From sequence record PV173770.1: a DNA stretch of 52,373 nt, one strand, 5' to 3'. Shown piece after piece: positions 7,069-50,700 of this stretch. The DNA is from Pseudomonas phage P7869. The notes beneath the pieces were generated by a model. That model was not told where the DNA came from, did no database searches, and worked only from the letters and a program-made list of their open reading frames with translations. A program made the translations under genes and the position numbers. The stretch's first letter is position 1; each line of letters begins with the position of its first letter.

Positions 7069-7186
7069 CTATTTGGCCCGAAAGGGCGCTCAACACGCAG
7101 CTAGGCCCGTACAGCCGAACGGCGGATGTCGCTCATCCGTCCGCCCCGCTGCGTTTCTATTCGCCTGATGAGCGAGGTAACGACAG

Positions 7187-7759
7187 ATGCGCGACAGTAA
7201 TGTTTTCGAGATTAAGAGATTGGCTGATGGGCTGGACGCTGCTTTGAAGGCGACCGATGCCTATGAGTACCTAATAGATCGGATAGCCGCTGTCTTCCTG
7301 AAATGCAGCCTCGTCCGAACTGTCGGCCTATTCGATGAGATGGCAGTCCTCGAAGCGATCAACGAGATCGATCTTTGCATCAAAGCCTCTGGCGAAGACT
7401 CGCGCGTCGCGGGCTTGTGTCGCTACGCTTTGGAGCTATCTGGCGTAGGGGAAAACGAATTGATGATCGACGGTGACGGGAAGGTGAAGCGCCGCATGGT
7501 TTACTTCATTCGGAACAGTCGTGGATCGATCAAGATCGGTTCGAGTATGAATGTCGAGGATCGCCTACATCAGCTTGAAACTGGAGCTGGCGAACGCCTC
7601 GAACTTATAGCCTCTGTACCAGGATCCTTCGGTGCGGAGCGAGAGCTACACGCGCGGTTTACTGGTTTGCGCGAGCATGGCGAATGGTTCAGCCCTGGGG
7701 AGGAATTGCTGGAGTACATCAACCAGCTTCAATTGACCTTCGGCCTCGACGCCGCCTAA
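7187..7759 (+). CDS. GIY-YIG (T5orf172-type) domain protein with unknown N-terminal domain
   Basis: C-terminal VYFIRNSRGSIKIGSS...ERLHQLETGAGERLELIA...AERELHARF...EWF is a GIY-YIG/T5orf172 signature. It has its own upstream intergenic region and a downstream terminator. Confidence 0.6.
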   Translation: MRDSNVFEIKRLADGLDAALKATDAYEYLIDRIAAVFLKCSLVRTVGLFDEMAVLEAINEIDLCIKASGEDSRVAGLCRYALELSGVGENELMIDGDGKVKRRMVYFIRNSRGSIKIGSSMNVEDRLHQLETGAGERLELIASVPGSFGAERELHARFTGLREHGEWFSPGEELLEYINQLQLTFGLDAA

Positions 7760-7779
7760 CCCAATCGCGACGAACGAAA

Positions 7780-7800
7780 GCCCGCCTTGAGCGGGCTTCG
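7780..7800 (+). terminator. Intrinsic terminator-like hairpin (GCCCGC-cttga-GCGGGC) plus U-rich tail
   Basis: Stem-loop seen directly after the 7759 stop. It is part of the repeated junction module (see findings). Confidence 0.55.
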
Positions 7801-7820
7801 TCGTTTCTGGAGATCATGAA

Positions 7821-8183
7821 ATGACCGACCAAGCAATCGAGCAAGAAATCCAGGCCAAGGGCCTGACCGCTCCCCGCATCACGCCTGCTGACGTTGAGGC
7901 GAACATCGTGGGTGAATACTTCTTCACTGCCGAGGATGGGGTGAAGACCGCTTTCAACCAGCAGGATGAGCTGACGCGTTTGACGGGATACCACGCCGAG
8001 CTGGGATTGCTGACCTTCTGCGTACTGGTACTGAAGAACGGCTTCACCGTCACCGGCGAGTCGGCCTGTGCGAGCCCGGCGAACTTCGACGCGGAGATCG
8101 GCCGGAAAATCTCCCGGCAGAATGCCGTCTCCAAAATCTGGCCACTGATGGGCTACGAACTGCGTAGCAGACTGGCTGACTGA
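7821..8183 (+). CDS. Gp49-like phage protein (Phage_gp49_66-type)
   Basis: LTFCVLVLKNGFTVTGESACASPANFDAEIGRKISRQNAVSKIWPLMGYELR is the hallmark of this family. Confidence 0.5.
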   Translation: MTDQAIEQEIQAKGLTAPRITPADVEANIVGEYFFTAEDGVKTAFNQQDELTRLTGYHAELGLLTFCVLVLKNGFTVTGESACASPANFDAEIGRKISRQNAVSKIWPLMGYELRSRLAD

Positions 8184-8186
8184 TCC

Positions 8187-9020
8187 ATGCTGATCCGTGG
8201 AATGCTCGGCCTCGGCGACTCGATCTATTCCAGGGCATTCCTGAGGAAGTACCCAGGCGCATTCCTCGAAACACCCTGGCCAGAGCTTTACCTCGACCTC
8301 GACGTGAAGTGCGTTCGCCCGGCGACGCAGTTGAGAACCCAGGCCAAGAACATCCAGCGCGAGCACGACTGGCACCGCCCTGTCGGCGGCGGCCAAATGC
8401 GCATCGCCTACGGCCGAGACCCGATCATTCAGGGGCTGCGCAAGGCGTTCCGTTGCGAACCCGGCGAGTTCGACCTGCCGGACTTTGGTCCTCCGCCAGT
8501 CGATGGGCGCTATGTGCTGGTTCGCCCAGCCACGGTTCGCGCTGAGTGGCGCGCAGACACGCGCAACCCACTGCCCGAGTACATCGCCAGCGCTGCCTCA
8601 GAGATGCGCCGCAGGGGCTGGAAAGTGGTTTCCGTGGCAGACCTGGAGCCGGGCAAGGAATGGGCGCTTGATCCACTCCCGCCGGCAGACATCCAGTTCC
8701 ACAAGGGCGAACTGCCGGTTGAACAACTGCTGGCGCTGCTCCAGCACGCAGATGCCGTGATTGGCGGCATCGGCTGGATCGTTCCGGCCGCCATAGCCGC
8801 CAAGGTGCCGGCCTGGATCATCTGCGGCGGCCAGGGCGGCTACAACTCGCCGGAACACATCACCGACAAGTGCATGGACCTGTCCCGCATCACCTTCGCG
8901 GTCCCCGACAGGTTCTGCCGCTGCACCCTCAAAGAACACAACTGCGACAAGAGAATCACCGACTACGAAAGAAAATTTTCGAAGTGGGCTGACGCACTTC
9001 AAATCGAGATGACACCATGA
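8187..9020 (+). CDS. GT9-like (heptosyltransferase-fold) glycosyltransferase
   Basis: N-terminal GLGDSIYSRAFLRKYPGA resembles the GT9 GDxxxxxPxxxxL motif. C-terminal LLALLQHADAVIGGIGWIVPAAIAAKVPAWIICGG resembles the GT9 acceptor/ADP-heptose binding region. Confidence 0.5.
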   Translation: MLIRGMLGLGDSIYSRAFLRKYPGAFLETPWPELYLDLDVKCVRPATQLRTQAKNIQREHDWHRPVGGGQMRIAYGRDPIIQGLRKAFRCEPGEFDLPDFGPPPVDGRYVLVRPATVRAEWRADTRNPLPEYIASAASEMRRRGWKVVSVADLEPGKEWALDPLPPADIQFHKGELPVEQLLALLQHADAVIGGIGWIVPAAIAAKVPAWIICGGQGGYNSPEHITDKCMDLSRITFAVPDRFCRCTLKEHNCDKRITDYERKFSKWADALQIEMTP

Positions 9021-10656: not shown

Positions 10657-10674
10657 ACCAACCAATACCGACAA

Positions 10675-10696
10675 CCCGCCTTGAGCGGGTTTTTTT
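10675..10696 (+). terminator. Intrinsic terminator (CCCGC-cttga-GCGGG + T7)
   Basis: Perfect hairpin followed by TTTTTTT between gp11-like and major tail genes. Confidence 0.65.
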
Positions 10697-10729
10697 GTGC
10701 TTCAAGAAACCCGCCACAGGAGAAACACA

Positions 10730-18455: not shown

Positions 18456-18475
18456 CCCGCACACACAAAACCAGA

Positions 18476-18499
18476 GCCCGCCAATAGAGCGGGCTTTTT
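18476..18499 (+). terminator. Intrinsic terminator (GCCCGC-caataga-GCGGGC + T5)
   Basis: Hairpin and T-tract directly after the J-like stop. Confidence 0.6.
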
Positions 18500-18517
18500 C
18501 ATGCCCGGAGAATTTGC

Positions 18518-20575: not shown

Positions 20576-20600
20576 GATGCAGCCCGAGACTCTATGACCA

Positions 20601-20625
20601 GCCCGCACTCTGCGGGCTTTTTTTT
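20601..20625 (+). terminator. Intrinsic terminator (GCCCGCA-ctc-TGCGGGC + T8)
   Basis: Strong hairpin plus poly-T after the tail fiber stop. Confidence 0.7.
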
Positions 20626-20641
20626 GTGCCTGGAGATCAGC

Positions 20642-20728
20642 ATGCCTATCACTGAGCAGCAACTGCTGCAAATCCTCCCGAACGCCGGCGCGATGGCCGG
20701 CGTTAGGTCAGCCACTAGCGGATGCTGA
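20642..20728 (+). pseudogene. 28-codon remnant resembling the N-terminus of a GH19-type endolysin (MPITEQQLLQILPNAG...)
   Basis: Good RBS (GGAGA). The N-terminal 16 aa resemble the conserved start of GH19 phage lysozymes. The frame collapses just before the inserted terminator/RBS module that precedes the GH24 lysin. Confidence 0.3.
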
Positions 20729-20797
20729 AATCAGAATACCCGTGCTGCTGGTGATCCTGGCCGGTAGCTGACCCGAACACCTTTCCGACGAAGATAG

Positions 20798-20815
20798 GCC
20801 CGCCATTGAGCGGGC
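20798..20815 (+). terminator. Hairpin GCCCGC-cattga-GCGGGC (second copy of the junction module)
   Basis: Followed by the same 17-nt TTCGTCGTTTCTGGAGA block seen at 7797-7813. Confidence 0.45.
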
Positions 20816-20839
20816 TTCGTCGTTTCTGGAGACCCGTAA

Positions 20840-21274
20840 ATGCGTACTTCCCAACGAGGCATAGACCTCATCAAATCGTTCGAGGGCCTGCGCTTGTCCG
20901 CCTATCAGGACTCGGTGGGTGTCTGGACCATCGGCTATGGCACTACGCGGGGCGTGACCCGCTACATGACGATCACCGTTGAGCAGGCCGAGCGGATGTT
21001 GGCCAATGACATTCAGCGCTTCGAGCCTGAACTGGACAAGCTGGTGAAAGTGCCACTGAACCAGAACCAGTGGGATGCCCTGATGAGCTTCGTCTATAAC
21101 CTGGGCGCGGCAAATCTTGCGTCGTCCACTCTGCTCAAGCTGCTGAACAAGGGTGACTACCAGGGAGCAGCGGACCAGTTCCCTCGCTGGGTGAATGCGG
21201 GTGGTAAGCGCTTGGAAGGGCTGGTAAAGCGCCGAGCGGCGGAACGTGTCCTGTTCCTGGAGCCGCTGTCGTGA
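20840..21274 (+). CDS. Endolysin, GH24 (T4-lysozyme-like) muramidase, no signal/SAR sequence
   Basis: SFEGLRLSAYQDSVGVWTIGYGTT contains the catalytic E/D/T triad context of GH24. Confidence 0.9.
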   Translation: MRTSQRGIDLIKSFEGLRLSAYQDSVGVWTIGYGTTRGVTRYMTITVEQAERMLANDIQRFEPELDKLVKVPLNQNQWDALMSFVYNLGAANLASSTLLKLLNKGDYQGAADQFPRWVNAGGKRLEGLVKRRAAERVLFLEPLS

Positions 21275-24560: not shown

Positions 24561-25090
24561 TGCTTGGCTCCTTCTATGGCTGCGTCGATTGCAGCGTCGA
24601 GGTGTTCTCCGAATAGATGCGATGTGCGGTTACGAACCACCACAACTCCGCGCTCCTTCTGCCGCAATGCGCGATACCGCGCAGCATCCTTCGCCATGCG
24701 CCGAATCTGCTCTGGAATGCTGACATTGCCGCCGTCTGGAGGGTCCATGTAGTAGGTGCCGGGGAGGGCGCTTGCGCATTGACTAAGCTCTGCCTTCAGC
24801 CGCTCCACCTCGGCAATCAGCCCGAGGATGGCTTTAGGGTTGGCGGCGGCGATGAAGGCTGCGTTCACTCTTCGCTGCTCGTTCATCTCCAGCCTTGTAG
24901 GTGCCGGGTTTTCCTGAGACATGGCAACGCACTGGTCGCCGGACTCGCTTTCAATGTTGAAGATGGCGCCGCTCTGCTGAGCATCCACCACCCAAGGCCC
25001 AGGCGTAGCCCGTTCCGCCAGCTCCTTCAGCTTGTTGGTGTCGGTCATTTGGTGGCTCCTTTGTCCATTGCCTTGATGATCTTCGGCCAC
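24557..25090 (-). CDS. Ead/Ea22-like protein (TPGPW motif)
   Basis: LKELAERATPGPWVVD and NAAFIAAANPKAILGLIAEVERL are shared with the next gene. Confidence 0.45.
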   Translation of the reverse strand: MAEDHQGNGQRSHQMTDTNKLKELAERATPGPWVVDAQQSGAIFNIESESGDQCVAMSQENPAPTRLEMNEQRRVNAAFIAAANPKAILGLIAEVERLKAELSQCASALPGTYYMDPPDGGNVSIPEQIRRMAKDAARYRALRQKERGVVVVRNRTSHLFGEHLDAAIDAAIEGAKQ

Positions 25091-29468: not shown

Positions 29469-29650
29469 GCTGCCACCCTCGGGGCTATGCCCATGTCTCT
29501 GTCGTGATGTCCTGCGAGCCACAGCGACCGTTCATAGAGCATGTGCAGTCCGTAGGGGCAGGCTTGAAGACGCTCGCCGCGATCCCGGGCTTCTATGCCC
29601 TCGCGGTATTCGTCGGTCGATTCGGGGAACTCAAGCCGCTTGCTTTGCAT
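29465..29650 (-). CDS. Ribosome modulation factor (Rmf)-like small protein
   Basis: YREGIEARDRGERLQACPYGLHMLYERSLWLAGHHD parallels the Rmf core (GYQAG..G......CPY.....RS.WL.GW). Confidence 0.45.
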   Translation of the reverse strand: MQSKRLEFPESTDEYREGIEARDRGERLQACPYGLHMLYERSLWLAGHHDRDMGIAPRVAA

Positions 29651-30230
29651 TTACTGCTCGCCTCCGCGCGTTTTCACAGGCCTTGCATTCGCTGCAATGG
29701 CCGTCCTTCTTGCTCGGGTTCGAGTAGTAGTCAGATAGAGGCTTGAGCGTCTTGCACTTCGAGCATGGTTTCTCGCCGTTTATGAGCGTCGATTTCCCAT
29801 GTCCGGATGCCCTCCACTTGTCGAACTCGGTGCGGGTGGAGAAATAGGTGCGAAGCAGGCGCTGTACGGTGTGATCGCTTACCCCCATGGCAGGGCCGAT
29901 CTCCCATCGACCGCAATCGAGGATCACTAGGTCTTCGAGCATCTGGCAGTATTCGATGTCCTTTGCCGTGCGCTTGGCCTGAACACGCTTCTGCTGCTCT
30001 CGCTCCATTCCGGTAGATGCTCCGGTAATGCGGCTATTGAACGTGGCCGGCTGATTTGAAGAGACGCCCGCAGGGATATTCGTGATGACCCCTCCCGCTG
30101 CCAGGTACTCAGCAACGGCGTCTTGAATGTCATCGTGAGTCAGCGCATGGGCAACCGGCTCTTGCACGCCGGACCACGCATCAGCGCCGATTCTCAGGTC
30201 GCTTAGAATCTCGGGAATGTCGGTTTCCAT
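29631..30230 (-). CDS. Hypothetical protein with C-terminal zinc-ribbon (CSKC...CSECKAC)
   Basis: 199 aa. Cys4 cluster at the C-terminus. Confidence 0.4.
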   Translation of the reverse strand: METDIPEILSDLRIGADAWSGVQEPVAHALTHDDIQDAVAEYLAAGGVITNIPAGVSSNQPATFNSRITGASTGMEREQQKRVQAKRTAKDIEYCQMLEDLVILDCGRWEIGPAMGVSDHTVQRLLRTYFSTRTEFDKWRASGHGKSTLINGEKPCSKCKTLKPLSDYYSNPSKKDGHCSECKACENARRRAVNAKQAA

Positions 30231-35593: not shown

Positions 35594-36619
35594 TCACTCG
35601 TCGAATTCGACGAACTCGCCCTCGGCACTCAACTGGTACCAGGTGTCCGGCTTTACGCCGTTCTCCCCGACCTTGCTGGCGCGGATATGGATGAGGCGCC
35701 CCTCGTCGTCGCGATGGCAGAGAACGATGGCGCTGCCGGCAGACGCGCGAGCGCGGCCTTCGATACCCAGGGATGCGGCGACGGACTCCTTGCCGCTGAC
35801 CTCGGCTGCCGAGTAGTCGCCGGTGTTCGACGCTGCCGAGCGGTTGCCGGTGTTCGACGCTGCCGAGCGGTTGCCGGCGTTCGACGCTGCCGAGCGGTTG
35901 CCGGTGTTCGACGCTGCCGAGTAGTCGCCGGTGTTGCTGGCTGCCGACTGGTAGCCGGTGTTCGACGCTGCCGATTGGTAGCCGGTGTTCGACGCTGCCG
36001 AGCGGTTGCCGGTGTTCGACGCTGCCGAGTAGTCGCCGGTGTTGCTGGCTGCCGAGCGGTTGCCGGTGTTCGACGCTGCCGAGCGGTTGCCGGTGTTCGA
36101 CGCTGCCGAGCGGTTGCCGGCGTTCGACGCTGCCGAGCGGTTGCCGGTGTTCGACGCTGCCGAGTAGTCGCCGGTGTTCGACGCTGCCGAGCGGCTGCCG
36201 GTGTTGCTGGCTGCCGACTGGTAGCCGGTGTTGCTGGCGGTGTCGCCCACCACCGTCTGCTCAACCGAGCTGTCCAACCGAGCCATGATCCAGTCGATGG
36301 CTCGCGAGATCATGGTCGGCATGCTGATTTCCGCCTCCACCACCAGGGTGGCGCTGGCGATCTTGCTGTCATCGTCGTGACGGCTCAGTTGTCCCGAAGC
36401 CTTCACGATGGCGAATCGGCTGTCGCCTGGGGCGTAGTAGCCGAAGACATCAAGGGGGTACTCGCAGGAGTGGAAGCCCGAAGCACATGCCTCTACCTCA
36501 CCCTCGTGCTTATAGGTTCCGCCGATCTCGAACTGGTAGCCGCGGCAGGTCAGGTCTTGCTTGAACCCCTTGTAAGCGGTCACGACCTCTTCGGACGCAG
36601 CCTTTTTCTTGCTCGCCAT
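35594..36619 (-). CDS. Tandem-repeat protein: globular N-terminal domain + about 16 x 9-aa repeats SAASNTG(NR/DY/YQ) + C-terminal domain
   Basis: Start refined to MASKKK (GGAGAA RBS). Repeat array is in-frame with a 27-nt period. Confidence 0.55.
   Translation of the reverse strand: MASKKKAASEEVVTAYKGFKQDLTCRGYQFEIGGTYKHEGEVEACASGFHSCEYPLDVFGYYAPGDSRFAIVKASGQLSRHDDDSKIASATLVVEAEISMPTMISRAIDWIMARLDSSVEQTVVGDTASNTGYQSAASNTGSRSAASNTGDYSAASNTGNRSAASNAGNRSAASNTGNRSAASNTGNRSAASNTGDYSAASNTGNRSAASNTGYQSAASNTGYQSAASNTGDYSAASNTGNRSAASNAGNRSAASNTGNRSAASNTGDYSAAEVSGKESVAASLGIEGRARASAGSAIVLCHRDDEGRLIHIRASKVGENGVKPDTWYQLSAEGEFVEFDE
35806..36240. repeat. 27-bp tandem repeat array (about 16 copies, units differ at 2 codons; higher-order DY-NR-NR-NR periodicity)
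   Basis: Unit on the plus strand is CGGTTGCCGGTGTTCGACGCTGCCGAG. Both strands show long ORFs. The plus-strand 35687..36637 ORF is a mirror artefact. Confidence 0.8.
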
Positions 36620-36722
36620 CGCGATTCTCCGTTTTAGGTTTGCCCTGGGTTGGGCGATAGGGCGCCCGGATGGGCAAATGGGTTGGAGCTGGTGATGCCC
36701 CGGCGAACCGGGGAGGTGGTAG

Positions 36723-36869
36723 TTAGTCTGAAAATTCAATATCTAATCCATCCAGAACGGCCTGAATGATTTGCGTTAGCTGGTCATTGTCCAGGTCTGA
36801 ACAATCAAACCCGCATTCGCGAAGGCAGTCAGAGACTGCCTCTAGCTGGGATTCAGTCAGGCTAATCAT
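36723..36869 (-). CDS. Small acidic protein (48 aa)
   Basis: GAAGG RBS. ATGA overlap with the upstream small ORF. Confidence 0.25.
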   Translation of the reverse strand: MISLTESQLEAVSDCLRECGFDCSDLDNDQLTQIIQAVLDGLDIEFSD

Positions 36870-38340: not shown

Positions 38341-38362
38341 AAAAGCCCGCGCTAGGCGGGCT
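38341..38362 (-). terminator. Intrinsic terminator (GCCCGC-ctagc-GCGGGC + T5 on minus strand) ending the X3 transcription unit
   Basis: Hairpin flanked by A5 on the plus strand. Confidence 0.6.
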
Positions 38363-42505: not shown

Positions 42506-42693
42506 CTTACAACGCCTTGGAGCTTCGTCCGGCGAAGAACTCCATTGCCATCTGCCAAGGTGATCAGGTCGTGACCATCACTCTGGATCAACTCCACCAG
42601 TTCACAAGCGACATCTGCATCCTCGCCGCATCGATGCGGGAAGACATGCGTGGCCCGCTGGACGATGACAAAGGAGAAGGAAATGTCGAATAG
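42487..42693 (+). CDS. Hypothetical protein (68 aa)
   Basis: ORF only. Confidence 0.3.
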   Translation: MQPRTLTYNALELRPAKNSIAICQGDQVVTITLDQLHQFTSDICILAASMREDMRGPLDDDKGEGNVE

Positions 42694-43582
42694 CTGGCTG
42701 CGGCTTTGGCATGACATGCCGAATGATCCGAAATGGAGAACGATTGCTCGCGTATCCGGGCAACCCGTTGCGTTGGTCCAGGCGGTGTATTTGCATCTTC
42801 TGGTCGATGCGTCACGAAATGTCACGCGCGGTCACGTGACTGTCACGACGGAAGATTTGGCTAGCGCGCTTGACGTGACAGACGAACAGATCGTGAATGT
42901 TATCGACGCGATGCAAGGGCGCGTTCTGGATGGTGATGCCCTCACTGGATGGGATAACCGTCAGCCGAAGCGCGAGGACGCCGGTAACCCTGAAAGAGGC
43001 GCAAAATCTGCTGCTCAGCGTAAAAGGGAGCAGCGCGAACGTGAGCGGGAGGCATCTAAAGTTGATGATGTCACGCAATGTCACGCAGAGTCACGCAATG
43101 TCACGCTAGATAAAGATACAGAAGAAGAGAAAGAGCATAACCCCCCTTACCCCCCTGAGGGGGTAGAGCCGGCTGTGCCGTCTCCGAAGTTCAACCCTCT
43201 GGATGCTTGCCCGGAAAACGTCACGCCATCGGTGTGGGCTGAATGGGTCAAGTGCCGGAGCGAGTTGCGCAAGCCGCTGAAGGAGACCACCTGCAAGGCG
43301 CAAGCGAAGCAGCTTGCAGGCCATCCCAACCCGGATGCAGTGATCCAGGCTTCGATCAGCGCAGGGTGGATGGGGTTGTTCCCTGACTGCGTGAAGTCGA
43401 ACGTCCACCCGATCCGCAAGGGCGCTGTCGTGAACGGGAAAACATACCCGTTCGAAGCGCCGCGTGGTTATGTGACCGAGTCCCACGAGTTCTGGCACGA
43501 CCACCTTCCGAACACAGTCCTGTCGATCTACACGCACGACTACACCTGCAAGCGCCTGCCGGCTGCCGGGGAGGCGCAATGA
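42683..43582 (+). CDS. Replication initiation/organiser protein (lambda O-like role) with embedded origin iterons
   Basis: AAGGAG RBS. N-terminal SWLRLWHDMPNDPKW motif. Two iteron clusters lie inside the gene. Confidence 0.6.
   Translation: MSNSWLRLWHDMPNDPKWRTIARVSGQPVALVQAVYLHLLVDASRNVTRGHVTVTTEDLASALDVTDEQIVNVIDAMQGRVLDGDALTGWDNRQPKREDAGNPERGAKSAAQRKREQREREREASKVDDVTQCHAESRNVTLDKDTEEEKEHNPPYPPEGVEPAVPSPKFNPLDACPENVTPSVWAEWVKCRSELRKPLKETTCKAQAKQLAGHPNPDAVIQASISAGWMGLFPDCVKSNVHPIRKGAVVNGKTYPFEAPRGYVTESHEFWHDHLPNTVLSIYTHDYTCKRLPAAGEAQ
42811..42848. repeat. Iteron cluster 1: 4 x GTCACG at about 10-bp spacing
   Basis: GTCACGaaatGTCACGcgcgGTCACGtgacTGTCACG. Confidence 0.6.
43068..43107. repeat. 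Iteron cluster 2: 4 x (T/A)GTCACGC at exactly 10-bp spacing
   Basis: gatGTCACGCaatGTCACGCagaGTCACGCaatGTCACGCtag. Confidence 0.65.
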
Positions 43583-45408
43583 CCCCCTCTGAGATTGCTC
43601 AGCGCCTCGCTGATCGCGTGATCGACGTTGCGCACCACTTGCTGCCCAGCGGAAAGCGCGAGGGAGCCGAGTGGCGTGTCGGCAGCGTGAACGGCGAAAA
43701 GGGCCAGAGCCTGGGCGTCCACCTCAAGGGCGAGAAAGCCGGCGTCTGGTGCGACTTCTCGACCGGCGAAACAGGCGACCTGTTGGACCTGTGGCGCGCT
43801 GTTCGCGGTTGTGACATGGGCACCGCACTGGCCGAGGCGAAGTCCTACTTGGGCATCGCTGATCCGAAACTCGAAGCGCCCTCTCGCAAGACCTACGTTC
43901 GCCCTGAGCGCCCCAAGTGCAAGGCTCCGGTCGATGAGTCTCCGGTCATGGCCTACCTTGTTGGGCGCGGTCTGAAGCCGGAAACCATTGCCGAGTTCAA
44001 GATCGGCGAGTCTGGCCGAGACATCGTGTTCCCGTACCTGCGGGACGGCGCTCTGATCTTCTGGAAGAAGCTCGGAGTTGATCGCCCCAACGGGAAGAAA
44101 CGGATTTCCGCCTCGGCTGACGCAGAGCCTTGCCTGTTCGGCTGGCAGGCCATTCCCGATGGCGCTCGCGAGGTGACGATCACCGAGGGCGAGATCGACG
44201 CCATGACTGCCTGGCAGTACGGTCGTCCGGCGCTGTCGGTTCCGTTCGGTGGTGGTAAGGGCGAGAAACAGGCGTGGATCGAGCACGAATATTCGCGCCT
44301 GTCCCGGTTCGACGTGATCTACCTCGCCATGGATGACGACGAGCCCGGCAAGCAGGCGACCGAAGAAATCATCAAGCGCCTTGGGCGCGAGCGCTGCCGC
44401 ATCCTGGACCTAGGCTGCAAGGACTTCAACGAAGCCCTGGATGCCCTGTTCTACACCCGCGACGACATCGACGACTGCTACGCCAAGGCCAAGACGCTCG
44501 ATCCCGAGAAGCTGGTAGGGGCTGAGTCGTTCGTTGATGACGTGTGCGCCGAGTTCTTCGAGCGCAACCCCGCAGTCATGGGTATGGCGACCCCATGGGA
44601 GAAGTCCCGCGACATGATCCGCTTCCGCGACAGCGAGGTCACGATCTGGACCGGCTGGAGCGGGCACGGGAAATCCCAGCTCCTGAACTACCTGGCTTTC
44701 CACGGCATGCGCCAGGGCGAGAAGTTCTGCATCGCCTCGATGGAGATGCCTGCCAAGCGGACCTTGCAGCGCATGGTGCGCCAGGCCGCCGGGCTCAACC
44801 AGCCCTCCCGTGGGTACATCCACGCCATCCTGGAGTTCCTGGGTGGTCGACTGTGGATCTACAACCAGATGGGTTCGGCCAACACCGCCGAGATGATCGA
44901 AACCTTCCGCTACGCCGCTCGCCGTTATGGGGTGAAGCAGTTCGTCGTCGATAGCCTGGCGAAGCTGGGGATGGCCGAAGACGACTACAACGGCCAGAAG
45001 CAGGCCATGGAATCCATCGTTGGTTTCGCGCATGAGATGGGCGTCCACGTTCACCTGGTGGCTCACCCGCGCAAGGCAGACGACGAATCCAAGATGCCTG
45101 GAAAGCTCGACGTTCGCGGCGGCGCCATCCTCACTGACCTGGCCGACAACGTGATCACCGTGTGGCGCAACAAGAAGAAGGAGTCCGCGATGAAGGGCAC
45201 CGATGAGGATCAAGCCGAGCACCTCAAGCAGCAGCCGGACGTGAAGATGATCATCACCAAGCAGCGCCTGACCGGTGTCGAGGAAACCATCTATCTCTGG
45301 TTCGACCCCGCATCCGCTCAGTACATGGAGCGCGAAGGGCACAAGCCTCGCCAGTGGATTGAATTTTCCGGGATCACCCAACAACAAGCCGATCAGGAGG
45401 CCGCATGA
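43579..45408 (+). CDS. Bifunctional DNA primase / DnaB-like (SF4) helicase
   Basis: N-terminal Zn-binding/TOPRIM (EGEIDAMTAW...DVIYLAMDDDEPGKQA). C-terminal Walker A GWSGHGKSQ and RecA-like helicase core. Confidence 0.8.
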   Translation: MTPSEIAQRLADRVIDVAHHLLPSGKREGAEWRVGSVNGEKGQSLGVHLKGEKAGVWCDFSTGETGDLLDLWRAVRGCDMGTALAEAKSYLGIADPKLEAPSRKTYVRPERPKCKAPVDESPVMAYLVGRGLKPETIAEFKIGESGRDIVFPYLRDGALIFWKKLGVDRPNGKKRISASADAEPCLFGWQAIPDGAREVTITEGEIDAMTAWQYGRPALSVPFGGGKGEKQAWIEHEYSRLSRFDVIYLAMDDDEPGKQATEEIIKRLGRERCRILDLGCKDFNEALDALFYTRDDIDDCYAKAKTLDPEKLVGAESFVDDVCAEFFERNPAVMGMATPWEKSRDMIRFRDSEVTIWTGWSGHGKSQLLNYLAFHGMRQGEKFCIASMEMPAKRTLQRMVRQAAGLNQPSRGYIHAILEFLGGRLWIYNQMGSANTAEMIETFRYAARRYGVKQFVVDSLAKLGMAEDDYNGQKQAMESIVGFAHEMGVHVHLVAHPRKADDESKMPGKLDVRGGAILTDLADNVITVWRNKKKESAMKGTDEDQAEHLKQQPDVKMIITKQRLTGVEETIYLWFDPASAQYMEREGHKPRQWIEFSGITQQQADQEAA

Positions 45409-50035: not shown

Positions 50036-50112
<77 letters not shown>

Positions 50113-50123
50113 ACTCGATTCAA

Positions 50124-50198
50124 TGACGTGTAGCTCAGAGGTAGAGCGGTCGGCTGTTACCCGACTGGTCGATGGTTCGATCCCATCCGCGTCAGCCA
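50124..50198 (+). tRNA. tRNA-Asn (anticodon GUU)
   Basis: 75 nt. Starts with U1 as in bacterial tRNA-Asn. Anticodon stem GTCGG/CCGAC, loop CTGTTAC, T-arm GATGG-TTCGATC-CCATC, discriminator G, CCA encoded. Confidence 0.7.
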
Positions 50199-50202
50199 AT
50201 AA

Positions 50203-50278
50203 GCCGGTATGGCGCAACAGGGAGCGCTGCTGATTTGTAATCAGAGGGTTGCGGGTTTGACTCCTGCTGCCGGCACCA
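50203..50278 (+). tRNA. tRNA-Thr (anticodon UGU)
   Basis: 76 nt. Acceptor GCCGGTA/TGCCGGC, anticodon loop TTTGTAA, T-loop TTTGACT (atypical), discriminator A, CCA encoded. Confidence 0.6.
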
Positions 50279-50287
50279 CACTACAAG

Positions 50288-50313
50288 GCCCAGGCAATGA
50301 CCTGGGCTTTCTG
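50288..50313 (+). terminator. Terminator-like hairpin (GCCCAGG-caatga-CCTGGGC + TTTCTG) after tRNA cluster
   Basis: Seen in sequence. Weak U-tract. Confidence 0.35.
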
Positions 50314-50331
50314 CATCTGGAGTACGTGAAT

Positions 50332-50700
50332 ATGGCCGAGCCGAGTGGTGCGGTAGCAGTCGCCGGCCTGGTCGGTATCGGTGCGTCTGCGTTGATCCCT
50401 GGCATTGATGCCAATGCAGTGATCGGGGCTTTTGCTGGGGCTATCTTCTTCGTGGTGTATGCCAAGGACATCTCGGCCTGGGCTCGCCTTGGCTACTTCG
50501 CTGCGTCCTGGATCGTTGGCTACTACGTCGCCGGCGAAGCCATTGGCCGGGAGTGGGCAAGGACATCGGGCCTGGTTGCCTTTGGTGGGGCATTGTTCTG
50601 CGTCGCAGTGGGCACAAGCTTGCTGGAGTGGGTGCAGGGGGGGAAGACGCCTGGTTGGCTCCGCTTCATAGCGGACCGCTTTGGAGGTCGTAATGGTTGA
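50332..50700 (+). CDS. Holin-like membrane protein (122 aa, 3-4 TM)
   Basis: GGAG RBS. Multiple Gly/Ala-rich TM helices. First late ORF after the tRNAs. The ORF-track start 50209 lies inside tRNA-Thr and is rejected. Confidence 0.4.
   Translation: MAEPSGAVAVAGLVGIGASALIPGIDANAVIGAFAGAIFFVVYAKDISAWARLGYFAASWIVGYYVAGEAIGREWARTSGLVAFGGALFCVAVGTSLLEWVQGGKTPGWLRFIADRFGGRNG

Follow-up and report, generated by a model that had tools for sequence, protein, structure and literature searches.

A 45-nt hairpin and ribosome-site element repeated at gene junctions of Pseudomonas phage P7869: a probable transcription terminator and homology patch

The window analysed here is the whole 52,373-nucleotide (nt) stretch of Pseudomonas phage P7869 (PV173770.1), and its subject is element E, a unit of ~45 nt that lies at two gene junctions of this phage. 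Sequence comparison identifies the window as the genome of a temperate Pseudomonas aeruginosa siphophage of the D3-like (Detrevirus-type) group, whose structural module is ~91% identical, as mosaic pieces, to D3, PMG1 and FBPa47. Its late genes, which begin with the terminase (37) and extend as far as those for endolysin and spanin (~21.9 kb), are on the + strand and are followed by an integrase-type gene on the - strand, while three tRNAs, a holin and an HNH gene are located at the right end. Both copies of E sit in short gaps between co-directional genes, copy 1 between an open reading frame (ORF) of 190 amino acids (aa) with a T5orf172/MUG113 domain and a Phage_gp49_66 gene, and copy 2 upstream of a GH24 endolysin gene.

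The repeated element and its gene junctions

The general form of E is C-GACGAACGAAA / GCCCGC-loop-GCGGGC / TTCGTCGTTTCTGGAG, followed by 5-8 nt and a start codon, in which the 3' part after GCGGGC consists of TTCGTCGT-TTCT and then the Shine-Dalgarno GGAG. The two copies, scored with a covariance model, and their parts, read from the sequence, are listed below together with the genes that follow them.

7768-7812, + strand: E copy 1 (model score 74.1 bits, full length; start codon at 7821)
7769-7779, + strand: copy 1 A-rich arm GACGAACGAAA, preceded by C
7780-7785, + strand: copy 1 stem GCCCGC
7786-7790, + strand: copy 1 loop CTTGA
7791-7796, + strand: copy 1 stem GCGGGC
7797-7808, + strand: copy 1 tail, TTCGTCGT TTCT
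7809-7812, + strand: copy 1 Shine-Dalgarno GGAG
20786-20831, + strand: E copy 2 (model score 65.6 bits; start codon at 20840)
20787-20797, + strand: copy 2 arm GACGAAGATAG, preceded by C
20798-20803, + strand: copy 2 stem GCCCGC
20804-20809, + strand: copy 2 loop CATTGA
20810-20815, + strand: copy 2 stem GCGGGC
20816-20827, + strand: copy 2 tail, TTCGTCGT TTCT
20828-20831, + strand: copy 2 GGAG
7821-8183, + strand: Phage_gp49_66 family protein, 120 aa, downstream of copy 1 (domain search)
20840-21274, + strand: GH24 endolysin (Phage_lysozyme), downstream of copy 2 (domain search)

The sequence GCGGGCTTCGTCGTTTCTGGAGA occurs exactly twice in the window, at 7791-7813 and 20810-20832, with zero mismatches. 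No third site was found in the window with up to 3 mismatches allowed, and none of 100 shuffles gave a match. The first-pass annotation had reported an identical block of 24 nt at both sites; the identity holds at each of them, and the block measures 23 nt within an exact identity of 27 nt (7787-7813 = 20806-20832). If the tandem array at 35.7-36.3 kb is set aside, the window contains no exact dispersed repeat longer than this 27-mer. From GCCCGCC through GGAGA the copies match at 34 of 35 positions with one loop indel (CTTGA versus CATTGA), in agreement with the earlier description of hairpins that differ by one loop base, and the upstream A-rich arms match at 8 of 11 positions (GACGAACGAAA in copy 1 versus GACGAAGATAG in copy 2). 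The seven nucleotides between GGAGA and ATG had also been read correctly, with the ATG at 7821 and 20840, while the notation CCCGCC-N5-GAGCGGG was inexact: the stem is GCCCGC/GCGGGC with a loop of 5-6 nt, and the literal pattern misses the hairpins at 7781 and 10675. A longer ordinary duplication, raised in the same annotation as an alternative source of the repeat, was checked by blastn of 500 nt either side of both copies; the 27-mer was the only match, which rules this origin out.

When folded as RNA, copy 1 reached -26 kcal/mol (z = -3.3) and copy 2 reached -23 kcal/mol, and the opposite strand of E folded equally well. The stem contains 6 GC pairs and 2 AU pairs and closes a loop of 5-6 nt in the two window copies; the core hairpin accounts for -11 to -14 kcal/mol. 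Pairing between the A-rich arm and UUCGUCGU, the interrupted U-tract, lengthens the stem to 14-15 pairs with bulges, one arm holding two extra bases. Across phages the hairpin arms are invariant and the loop is variable. The covariance model, which was built from 24 diverse copies, found two full-length matches in the window, namely the two copies listed above.

The stop codon of the upstream gene lies 20 nt before the hairpin in copy 1 and 26 nt before it in copy 2. The same geometry was found in 34 distinct flank combinations, with a stop codon ~19-30 nt before the hairpin, a start codon ~20-26 nt after it, and the hairpin always on the genes' strand. A 46-aa ORF that spans E (7684-7824) was considered as coding and rejected, and E as a whole is taken as not coding because the loop length varies (5, 6 or 7 nt). 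At gathering thresholds, an Rfam search of the whole window returned the three tRNAs only and nothing at E.

Beyond the window, the 58-nt E region matched 87 GenBank phage records, nearly all from Pseudomonas, including D3-like phages, PAJU2-like phages, R656 and the unrelated F10-like phages, with 1-3 copies per phage record. A pattern scan of IMG/VR yielded at least 120 E loci, and the flanks lying outside the scan pattern (GACGAACGAAA and TTCTGGAG-N-ATG) were still present in most of the instances recovered. Conversely, a search anchored on the flanks alone (GACGAACGAAA ... TTCGTCGTTTC) returned the GCCCGC/GCGGGC stem every time, with eight different loops. In 185,579 species-representative genomes the extended E was detected in only six, five of them Pseudomonas or Azomonas, with one copy each; E is therefore not a host repeat of the repetitive extragenic palindromic (REP) type. 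No earlier description of E was found in the searchable literature, which did not cover the original D3 genome paper.

Cassettes and mosaic joints

Copy 1 forms the 3' end of a cassette, referred to as slot 1, which begins with a conserved leader and encloses one variable ORF.

7078-7170, + strand: conserved leader at the 5' end of the cassette (88-96% identical in D3-like and F10-like phages)
7187-7759, + strand: cargo ORF of cassette slot 1, 190 aa, T5orf172/MUG113 domain (domain search and D3 comparison)

The cargo ORF is preceded by a 118-nt gap that D3-like phages conserve and F10-like phages match at 88% identity. In F10 the leader precedes a Rha-like regulator, which is followed by E and then by a holin, and the window and F10 share two islands only, the leader (88% identity) and E (39 nt, 95% identity). 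Among D3-type loci with enough sequence, collected by anchoring on the leader, E was found 547-773 nt downstream of the leader in 27 of 27, and at least six unrelated ORFs occupied the space between them. D3 itself carries a KilA-N protein unrelated to that of the window, and in other relatives the place is taken by at least four ORFs besides these. With a broader leader anchor in IMG/VR, the order leader-ORF-E was recovered in 86 of 98 loci. The G+C fraction over 7150-7750 is 0.53-0.54 versus 0.58-0.63 in the adjacent genes, a modest difference. Slot 1 has two features of a moron, a replaceable gene between conserved late genes and a deviating base composition.

The leader at 7094-7170 aligned with the full length (model 1-71) of the Rfam int-alpA RNA (RF02996) at 23.6 bits, with agreement in the layout of three stems and in the motifs CUAG and CGAA. 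The gathering threshold of this family is 35.8 bits; we do not count the leader as a member, and the score is treated as a lead only. We also observed that otherwise unrelated cargo proteins (KilA-N type, T5orf172 type and proteins of P. putida prophages) end alike in ...QLQ(L/M)T(L/F)GL(D/E)AA, with similar cargo 3' ends in the window (7730-7759) and in the loci L001, L176, L179 and L212-L261. Given this common C-terminal tail, the homology containing E extends ~30 nt into the coding sequence.

Compared with D3, the window is homologous up to 7183 and differs across exactly 7184-7739, which is the cargo ORF. An 83-nt island of homology (7740-7822), which contains E, then stands between unrelated segments; it is followed by a break over the gp49-like gene, and homology resumes from 8193. 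The gp49-like gene is missing in D3, where E directly precedes the homologue of orf12 (window 8187-9020). A homologue of the gp49-like gene in BK061477.1 (23060-23419) is labelled 'Anti-CRISPR protein'; this label is unsupported, because Pfam and PHROGs give only Phage_gp49_66 and function-unknown families.

The position of the exchange points was examined in 134 non-identical instances from IMG/VR, in which 52 left-flank and 43 right-flank clusters occurred in 60 combinations. In 84 of 119 pairs with a common left flank and differing right flanks, similarity stopped exactly 16 nt past the hairpin, after GGAG, and in pairs with neither flank in common the limits of similarity were at ~-12 and +16 around the hairpin. 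When the A-tract type (GACGAACGAAA or GACGAAGATAR), the loop type and the downstream gene (GH24, GH19-type, gp49-like or orf12) were compared pairwise, all four combinations occurred in each comparison; these are haplotype observations and not counted events. Identical loop types also turned up in different slots. Since all four combinations occur, and since loops differing at several positions are unlikely to arise by repeated mutation, the exchange points are placed inside the 45-nt unit.

Red-beta is reported to need at least 23-27 bp for pairing, and RecA 31-34 bp (PMC3945230). The two copies of the window are identical over 27 nt, and copies from different phages over as many as 44 nt, so the identity reaches the Red-beta minimum, and the longer matches exceed that of RecA. 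The phage encodes a YqaJ/RecE-like exonuclease, and no annealase partner for it was identified by Pfam and PHROGs. E has three properties of a boundary sequence, namely unrelated flanks, internal exchange points and an identity long enough for recombination enzymes. The proposal that E could be a recombination joint is supported by the 83-nt island relative to D3, by the many unrelated flanks in IMG/VR prophages and by the four combinations of its sub-parts, and the comparison with related phages that had been recommended shows that the element coincides with module junctions in D3, F10 and IMG/VR.

Copy 2 is 100% identical over 59 nt to a junction in CF23a-type phages. When 5' ends of GH24 endolysin genes were picked from IMG/VR without reference to the hairpin, E was immediately upstream in 40 of 40, in four upstream contexts and with five loop types. 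The remnant of another gene lies upstream of copy 2.

20642-20743, + strand: scar, an N-terminal remnant (MPITEQQLLQILPNAG...) joined to the sequence preceding copy 2 (comparison with CF23a and R656)

The remnant comprises 28 codons (20642-20728) of a gene starting MPITEQQLL..., which, judging by its N-terminus, we take to encode a putative GH19-type endolysin, and the join lies at ~20739-20743. CF23a and R656 carry 1.4-1.9 kb of cargo, including an Ant antirepressor, between the same two points; the window therefore holds a deletion scar. The joining of the remnant to the sequence before copy 2 leaves an emptied cargo slot between two E-type hairpins 198 nt apart. D3 retains the same remnant at 24665-24728 of its record, and phages with an intact MPITEQQLL... 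gene carry E at the site of the hairpin found at 20600 in the window.

Termination, exchange and rival explanations

Intrinsic terminators usually have a GC-rich hairpin with 5 or more stem pairs and 3-8 nt in the loop, placed just after a stop codon and in the orientation of the gene, and E agrees with this. A consensus terminator scan flagged both copies. The tail TTCGTCGTTTCT passed a loose scan (5 T in 8); its tail score, however, is 2.24, and the d'Aubenton-Carafa-type score of E is negative. The strongest indirect support for a terminator role is substitution at orthologous positions. At the site before the MPITEQQLL... start codon, the window carries the same stem with a T8 run instead of E, and 12 leader-bearing cassettes without E have a canonical CCGCC/GGCGG-T7 terminator at the position of E. 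Since canonical U-run terminators replace E at orthologous sites, termination is its likely selected function.

The late operon contains canonical Rho-independent terminators at 10673, 11910, 18475 and 20600, of which three resemble E in their hairpin (d, d'Aubenton-Carafa-type score).

10673-10697, + strand: intrinsic-terminator hairpin AACCCGCCTTGAGCGGGTT followed by a T-run, between the tail-completion and tail-tube genes (d = +12 to +26; conserved in D3)
18475-18500, + strand: terminator hairpin AGCCCGCCAATAGAGCGGGCT followed by TTTTT, between the J-like and tail-fibre genes (conserved in D3 with one loop difference)
20600-20644, + strand: positional homologue of E with a U-run, AGCCCGC-ACTCT-GCGGGCT, T8, CCTGGAGA, ATG (d = +43)

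The pattern CCCGC-N3-9-GCGGG has 9 sites in the window versus 1.4 expected, and 0 of 100 shuffles reached 9. The first-pass annotation had assigned the hairpins at 10675 and 18477 to one family with E. They are present, and together with that at 20600 they share with E a generic GCCCGC stem-loop and the layout hairpin-GGAGA-ATG; the hairpin at 10675 even has the same 15-mer core as copy 1, between different flanks. At 10675, 18477, 20600 and 38343, however, the covariance model matched only the core GCCCGC stem-loop, and these hairpins have ordinary U-runs, so those at 10675, 18477 and 20600 are not copies of the 45-nt unit. GCCCGC/GCGGGC stems with TTTCGTTTC-type tails were also found in unrelated terminators at 38343, 39243, 48914 and 49956. 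The supposed family consists of one specific repeated unit, E, and several generic terminators with a common stem and layout.

We consider that E probably combines two functions, as a terminator ending accessory-gene transcripts and as a homology patch for gene exchange, and we give this joint reading a probability of about 0.6. The RNA of E would form a GC-rich hairpin whose stem is extended by pairing of the A-rich arm with UUCGUCGU, followed by a short U-rich spacer and GGAG. As a terminator, probably a leaky one, it would insulate the downstream genes: transcripts of separately expressed accessory ('moron') genes, such as the cassette at 7078-7812 and the cargo upstream of the endolysin, would be stopped at E and kept out of the structural and lysis genes that follow. 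Late transcription would read through E, as it must already pass the canonical terminators at 10673, 18475 and 20600. Lambda-type late operons are read through by antitermination. The GGAG may provide a translation start for the next gene that is independent of the upstream context. Because E is kept at many junctions of co-circulating phages, it would offer a homology patch of 27-44 nt, and homologous recombination within this patch may swap the genes on either side. The sequence comparisons show how E is built and distributed, that homology breaks off at one or both of its edges, and that recombinant arrangements occur inside it. The terminator role we infer from placement, orientation and substitution; the read-through and the enzymes that would perform the exchange we likewise infer.

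Several points weigh against this combined reading. The U-tract of E is interrupted (UUCGUCGUUUCU), which is the main evidence against a terminator role: because of it the d scores of E are negative, -13 to -15 versus +2 to +43 for four canonical hairpins of the same genome, so E may terminate weakly or not at all. Pairing with the complementary A-rich arm may make up for the weak U-tract. No Q-like antiterminator was recognised among the window proteins by Pfam and PHROGs, and a scan of 7069-7186, upstream of the cargo gene, gave no sigma-70-like promoter. There is no covariation in E: the core stem is invariant, and about one third of contexts have lost the outer stem with no compensatory change. 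The analysis is uninformative, in part because the sequences were collected with a search pattern that prescribed the 3' arm. With respect to exchange, the pairs used to locate the limits of similarity are not independent events, and some recurrent mutation could be contained in the four-combination patterns, which is unlikely for loops differing at several positions. The first-pass reading of a terminator or attenuator plus a translation-initiation region thus gains from the placement, the orientation and the canonical terminators at orthologous sites, and loses from the interrupted U-tract and the score below threshold; overall, the earlier interpretation is partly supported and in the main sound.

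A different role at the RNA level would be that of a processing or stability element, in which E protects the 3' end of the upstream message or is cut there by an endonuclease, which would uncouple the decay of the cargo message from that of the downstream message, like lambda sib/tI retroregulation. The U-tract that is poor for termination, the bulged stem of 14-15 pairs at -26 kcal/mol that forms on either strand, and the tail TTCGTCGT, which is kept also in copies that lack the complementary 5' arm, would all suit such a role. We regard it as unlikely, given the canonical U-run terminators that replace E at orthologous positions, the loss of the outer stem in about one third of contexts, and a stem shorter than typical RNase III substrates. 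At the DNA level, E could be an imperfect palindrome on which a phage or host protein, such as a structure- or site-specific recombinase or a homing-type nuclease, drives cassette exchange. Its location at the 3' end of single-gene cassettes, the conserved arms with a variable spacer and two extra bases on one arm, the exchange points inside E, and the presence of a T5orf172 domain among the cargo ORFs and of HNH genes nearby in relatives are compatible with this, T5orf172 being related to GIY-YIG nucleases. No dedicated recombinase co-occurs with E across the phage backbones examined, the spacer of 5-8 nt and the asymmetric extra bases speak against a simple dimer site, the core sequences of integron attC are absent, and ordinary homologous recombination suffices for the patterns, which together make a protein-driven DNA site improbable. 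We considered also that leader, variable ORF and E form a dedicated cassette system of Pseudomonas temperate phages, in which E, with its two extra-helical bases at the cassette 3' end, would be the substrate of a structure- or site-specific exchange functionally analogous to integron attC; this we hold to be decidedly improbable.

It is very improbable that chance or convergence among GC-rich terminator hairpins, with neither common descent nor a special role, accounts for E. In its favour, GCCCGC/GCGGGC stems and TTTCGTTTC-type tails recur in unrelated terminators of this genome, and about half of the singletons in unrelated IMG/VR contexts carry TTCTG past the enforced search pattern. The exact match of 27 nt is unexpected by chance (0 of 100 shuffles), and the non-enforced flanks GACGAACGAAA and TTCTGGAG are conserved in most recovered instances, by which convergence is refuted as an origin of both full copies. 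It stays viable for the hairpins that match in the core alone, and may explain the looser likeness of those at 10675, 18477 and 20600. The notion of a small mobile REP-type or miniature inverted-repeat transposable element (MITE)-type repeat that inserts into intergenic DNA would account for a short palindromic unit at many unrelated junctions. It is at odds with the low copy numbers: of 185,579 species-representative genomes, 6 have the extended element, each of them once, while the window has 2 full copies and phage records carry 1-3. The flanks that were inspected showed no duplication, and E always has the orientation of the flanking genes; copy number and fixed orientation effectively refute such a repeat.

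E bears on an old debate, whether phage mosaicism comes about via short conserved boundary sequences or by random illegitimate joining, for which clear boundary examples are few. One 45-nt unit at dozens of gene junctions in co-circulating temperate phages of P. aeruginosa is an experimentally testable substrate. Together with its paired leader, E flags accessory-gene slots in Pseudomonas prophages, which are likely to hold lysogenic-conversion, anti-repressor-like or defence genes.

Some further observations concern other parts of the window. The three tRNA genes, Gly-TCC, Asn-GTT and Thr-TGT (50036-50278), lie just upstream of a Phage_holin_8 ORF (50209-50700) and overlap its listed start; since the holin adjoins the tRNA genes at the right end, it is placed where the late region begins, and on the circular map ~22 kb separate it from the endolysin at 20840. 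The tandem array at 35709-36302 has a 27-nt period and ~20 copies of 62-100% identity, and it lies inside long ORFs on both strands (35687-36637 on the + strand and 35594-36739 on the - strand); if coding, it would give a nine-residue repeat. A 199-aa protein (29631-30230, - strand) matches at its N-terminus the RNA-polymerase-binding domain of SutA (PF20661, E = 3e-9) and has a C-terminal region like the endonuclease VII and HNH families in PHROGs, an unusual combination for a phage early gene. Four copies of the 17-nt unit GTCACGCAATGTCACGC, three of them at 10-nt spacing, are located at 42811-43106 inside an ORF (42650-43582) upstream of a primase/helicase-like gene (43579-45408), and these may be origin iterons.

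Comparison with known systems

Morons of the HK97/HK022 type are described, in the summary given in PMC3594210, as extra genes with their own promoter and terminator inserted between late genes. The accessory ORFs linked to E resemble them in lying between conserved head/tail or tail/lysis genes, in being replaced or absent in relatives, in a cargo GC content slightly below that of the neighbours, and in a hairpin directly after the stop codon. They differ in that E, and in slot 1 also the leader, is conserved across many cargo ORFs and unrelated backbones, so that the ends are constant and the gene is variable; moreover, the U-tract of E is atypical, and the scan identified no promoter for the cargo gene.

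Short conserved boundary or 'linker' sequences were proposed for lambdoid modular exchange by Susskind and Botstein and by Clark et al. on HK620 (both cited in PMC3029335; the debate is treated in PMC3945230). Like these linkers, E is short, stands at gene boundaries, is common to genomes with unrelated flanks and coincides with exchange points, and it is about as long as the shortest segment that phage annealases can pair. Unlike them, it comes from Pseudomonas phages, unites a terminator-like hairpin with a ribosome-binding leader and is known here from sequence comparison. As the linker is itself a terminator-like hairpin with a ribosome-binding leader, its conservation is explicable by function and calls for no dedicated recombination role.

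With the canonical terminators of its own operon E shares the GCCCGC/GCGGGC core, the co-directional placement among late genes and the hairpin-GGAGA-ATG layout, whereas its U-tract is interrupted, its A-rich arm is complementary and its score is below threshold. In Pseudomonas phage phiKZ, 61 sites carry a terminator motif consisting of one hairpin and a TTAT motif (PMC10914365). This too is a sequence-conserved hairpin family in a Pseudomonas phage, and the phiKZ sites are transcript-end signals; they number dozens of experimentally mapped copies in one lytic genome, in contrast to the 1-3 copies of E per temperate genome, which are shared at mosaic joints and known from sequence. Integron attC sites resemble E in being imperfect palindromes, in the extra bases that one arm carries and in their position at the 3' end of single-gene cassettes. 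The RYYYAAC/GTTRRRY core sites are missing from both strands of E, which is also much shorter; no integron integrase is present, and the cassettes of E also have a conserved 5' leader, which suits a double crossover by homology.

On these comparisons E is a well-documented case of something already known, a probable moron terminator that is also a conserved boundary sequence, and not a new kind of system. It differs from the known cases in that the cassette ends are conserved rather than the gene, and in that hairpin, spacer and ribosome site are contained in one sequence.

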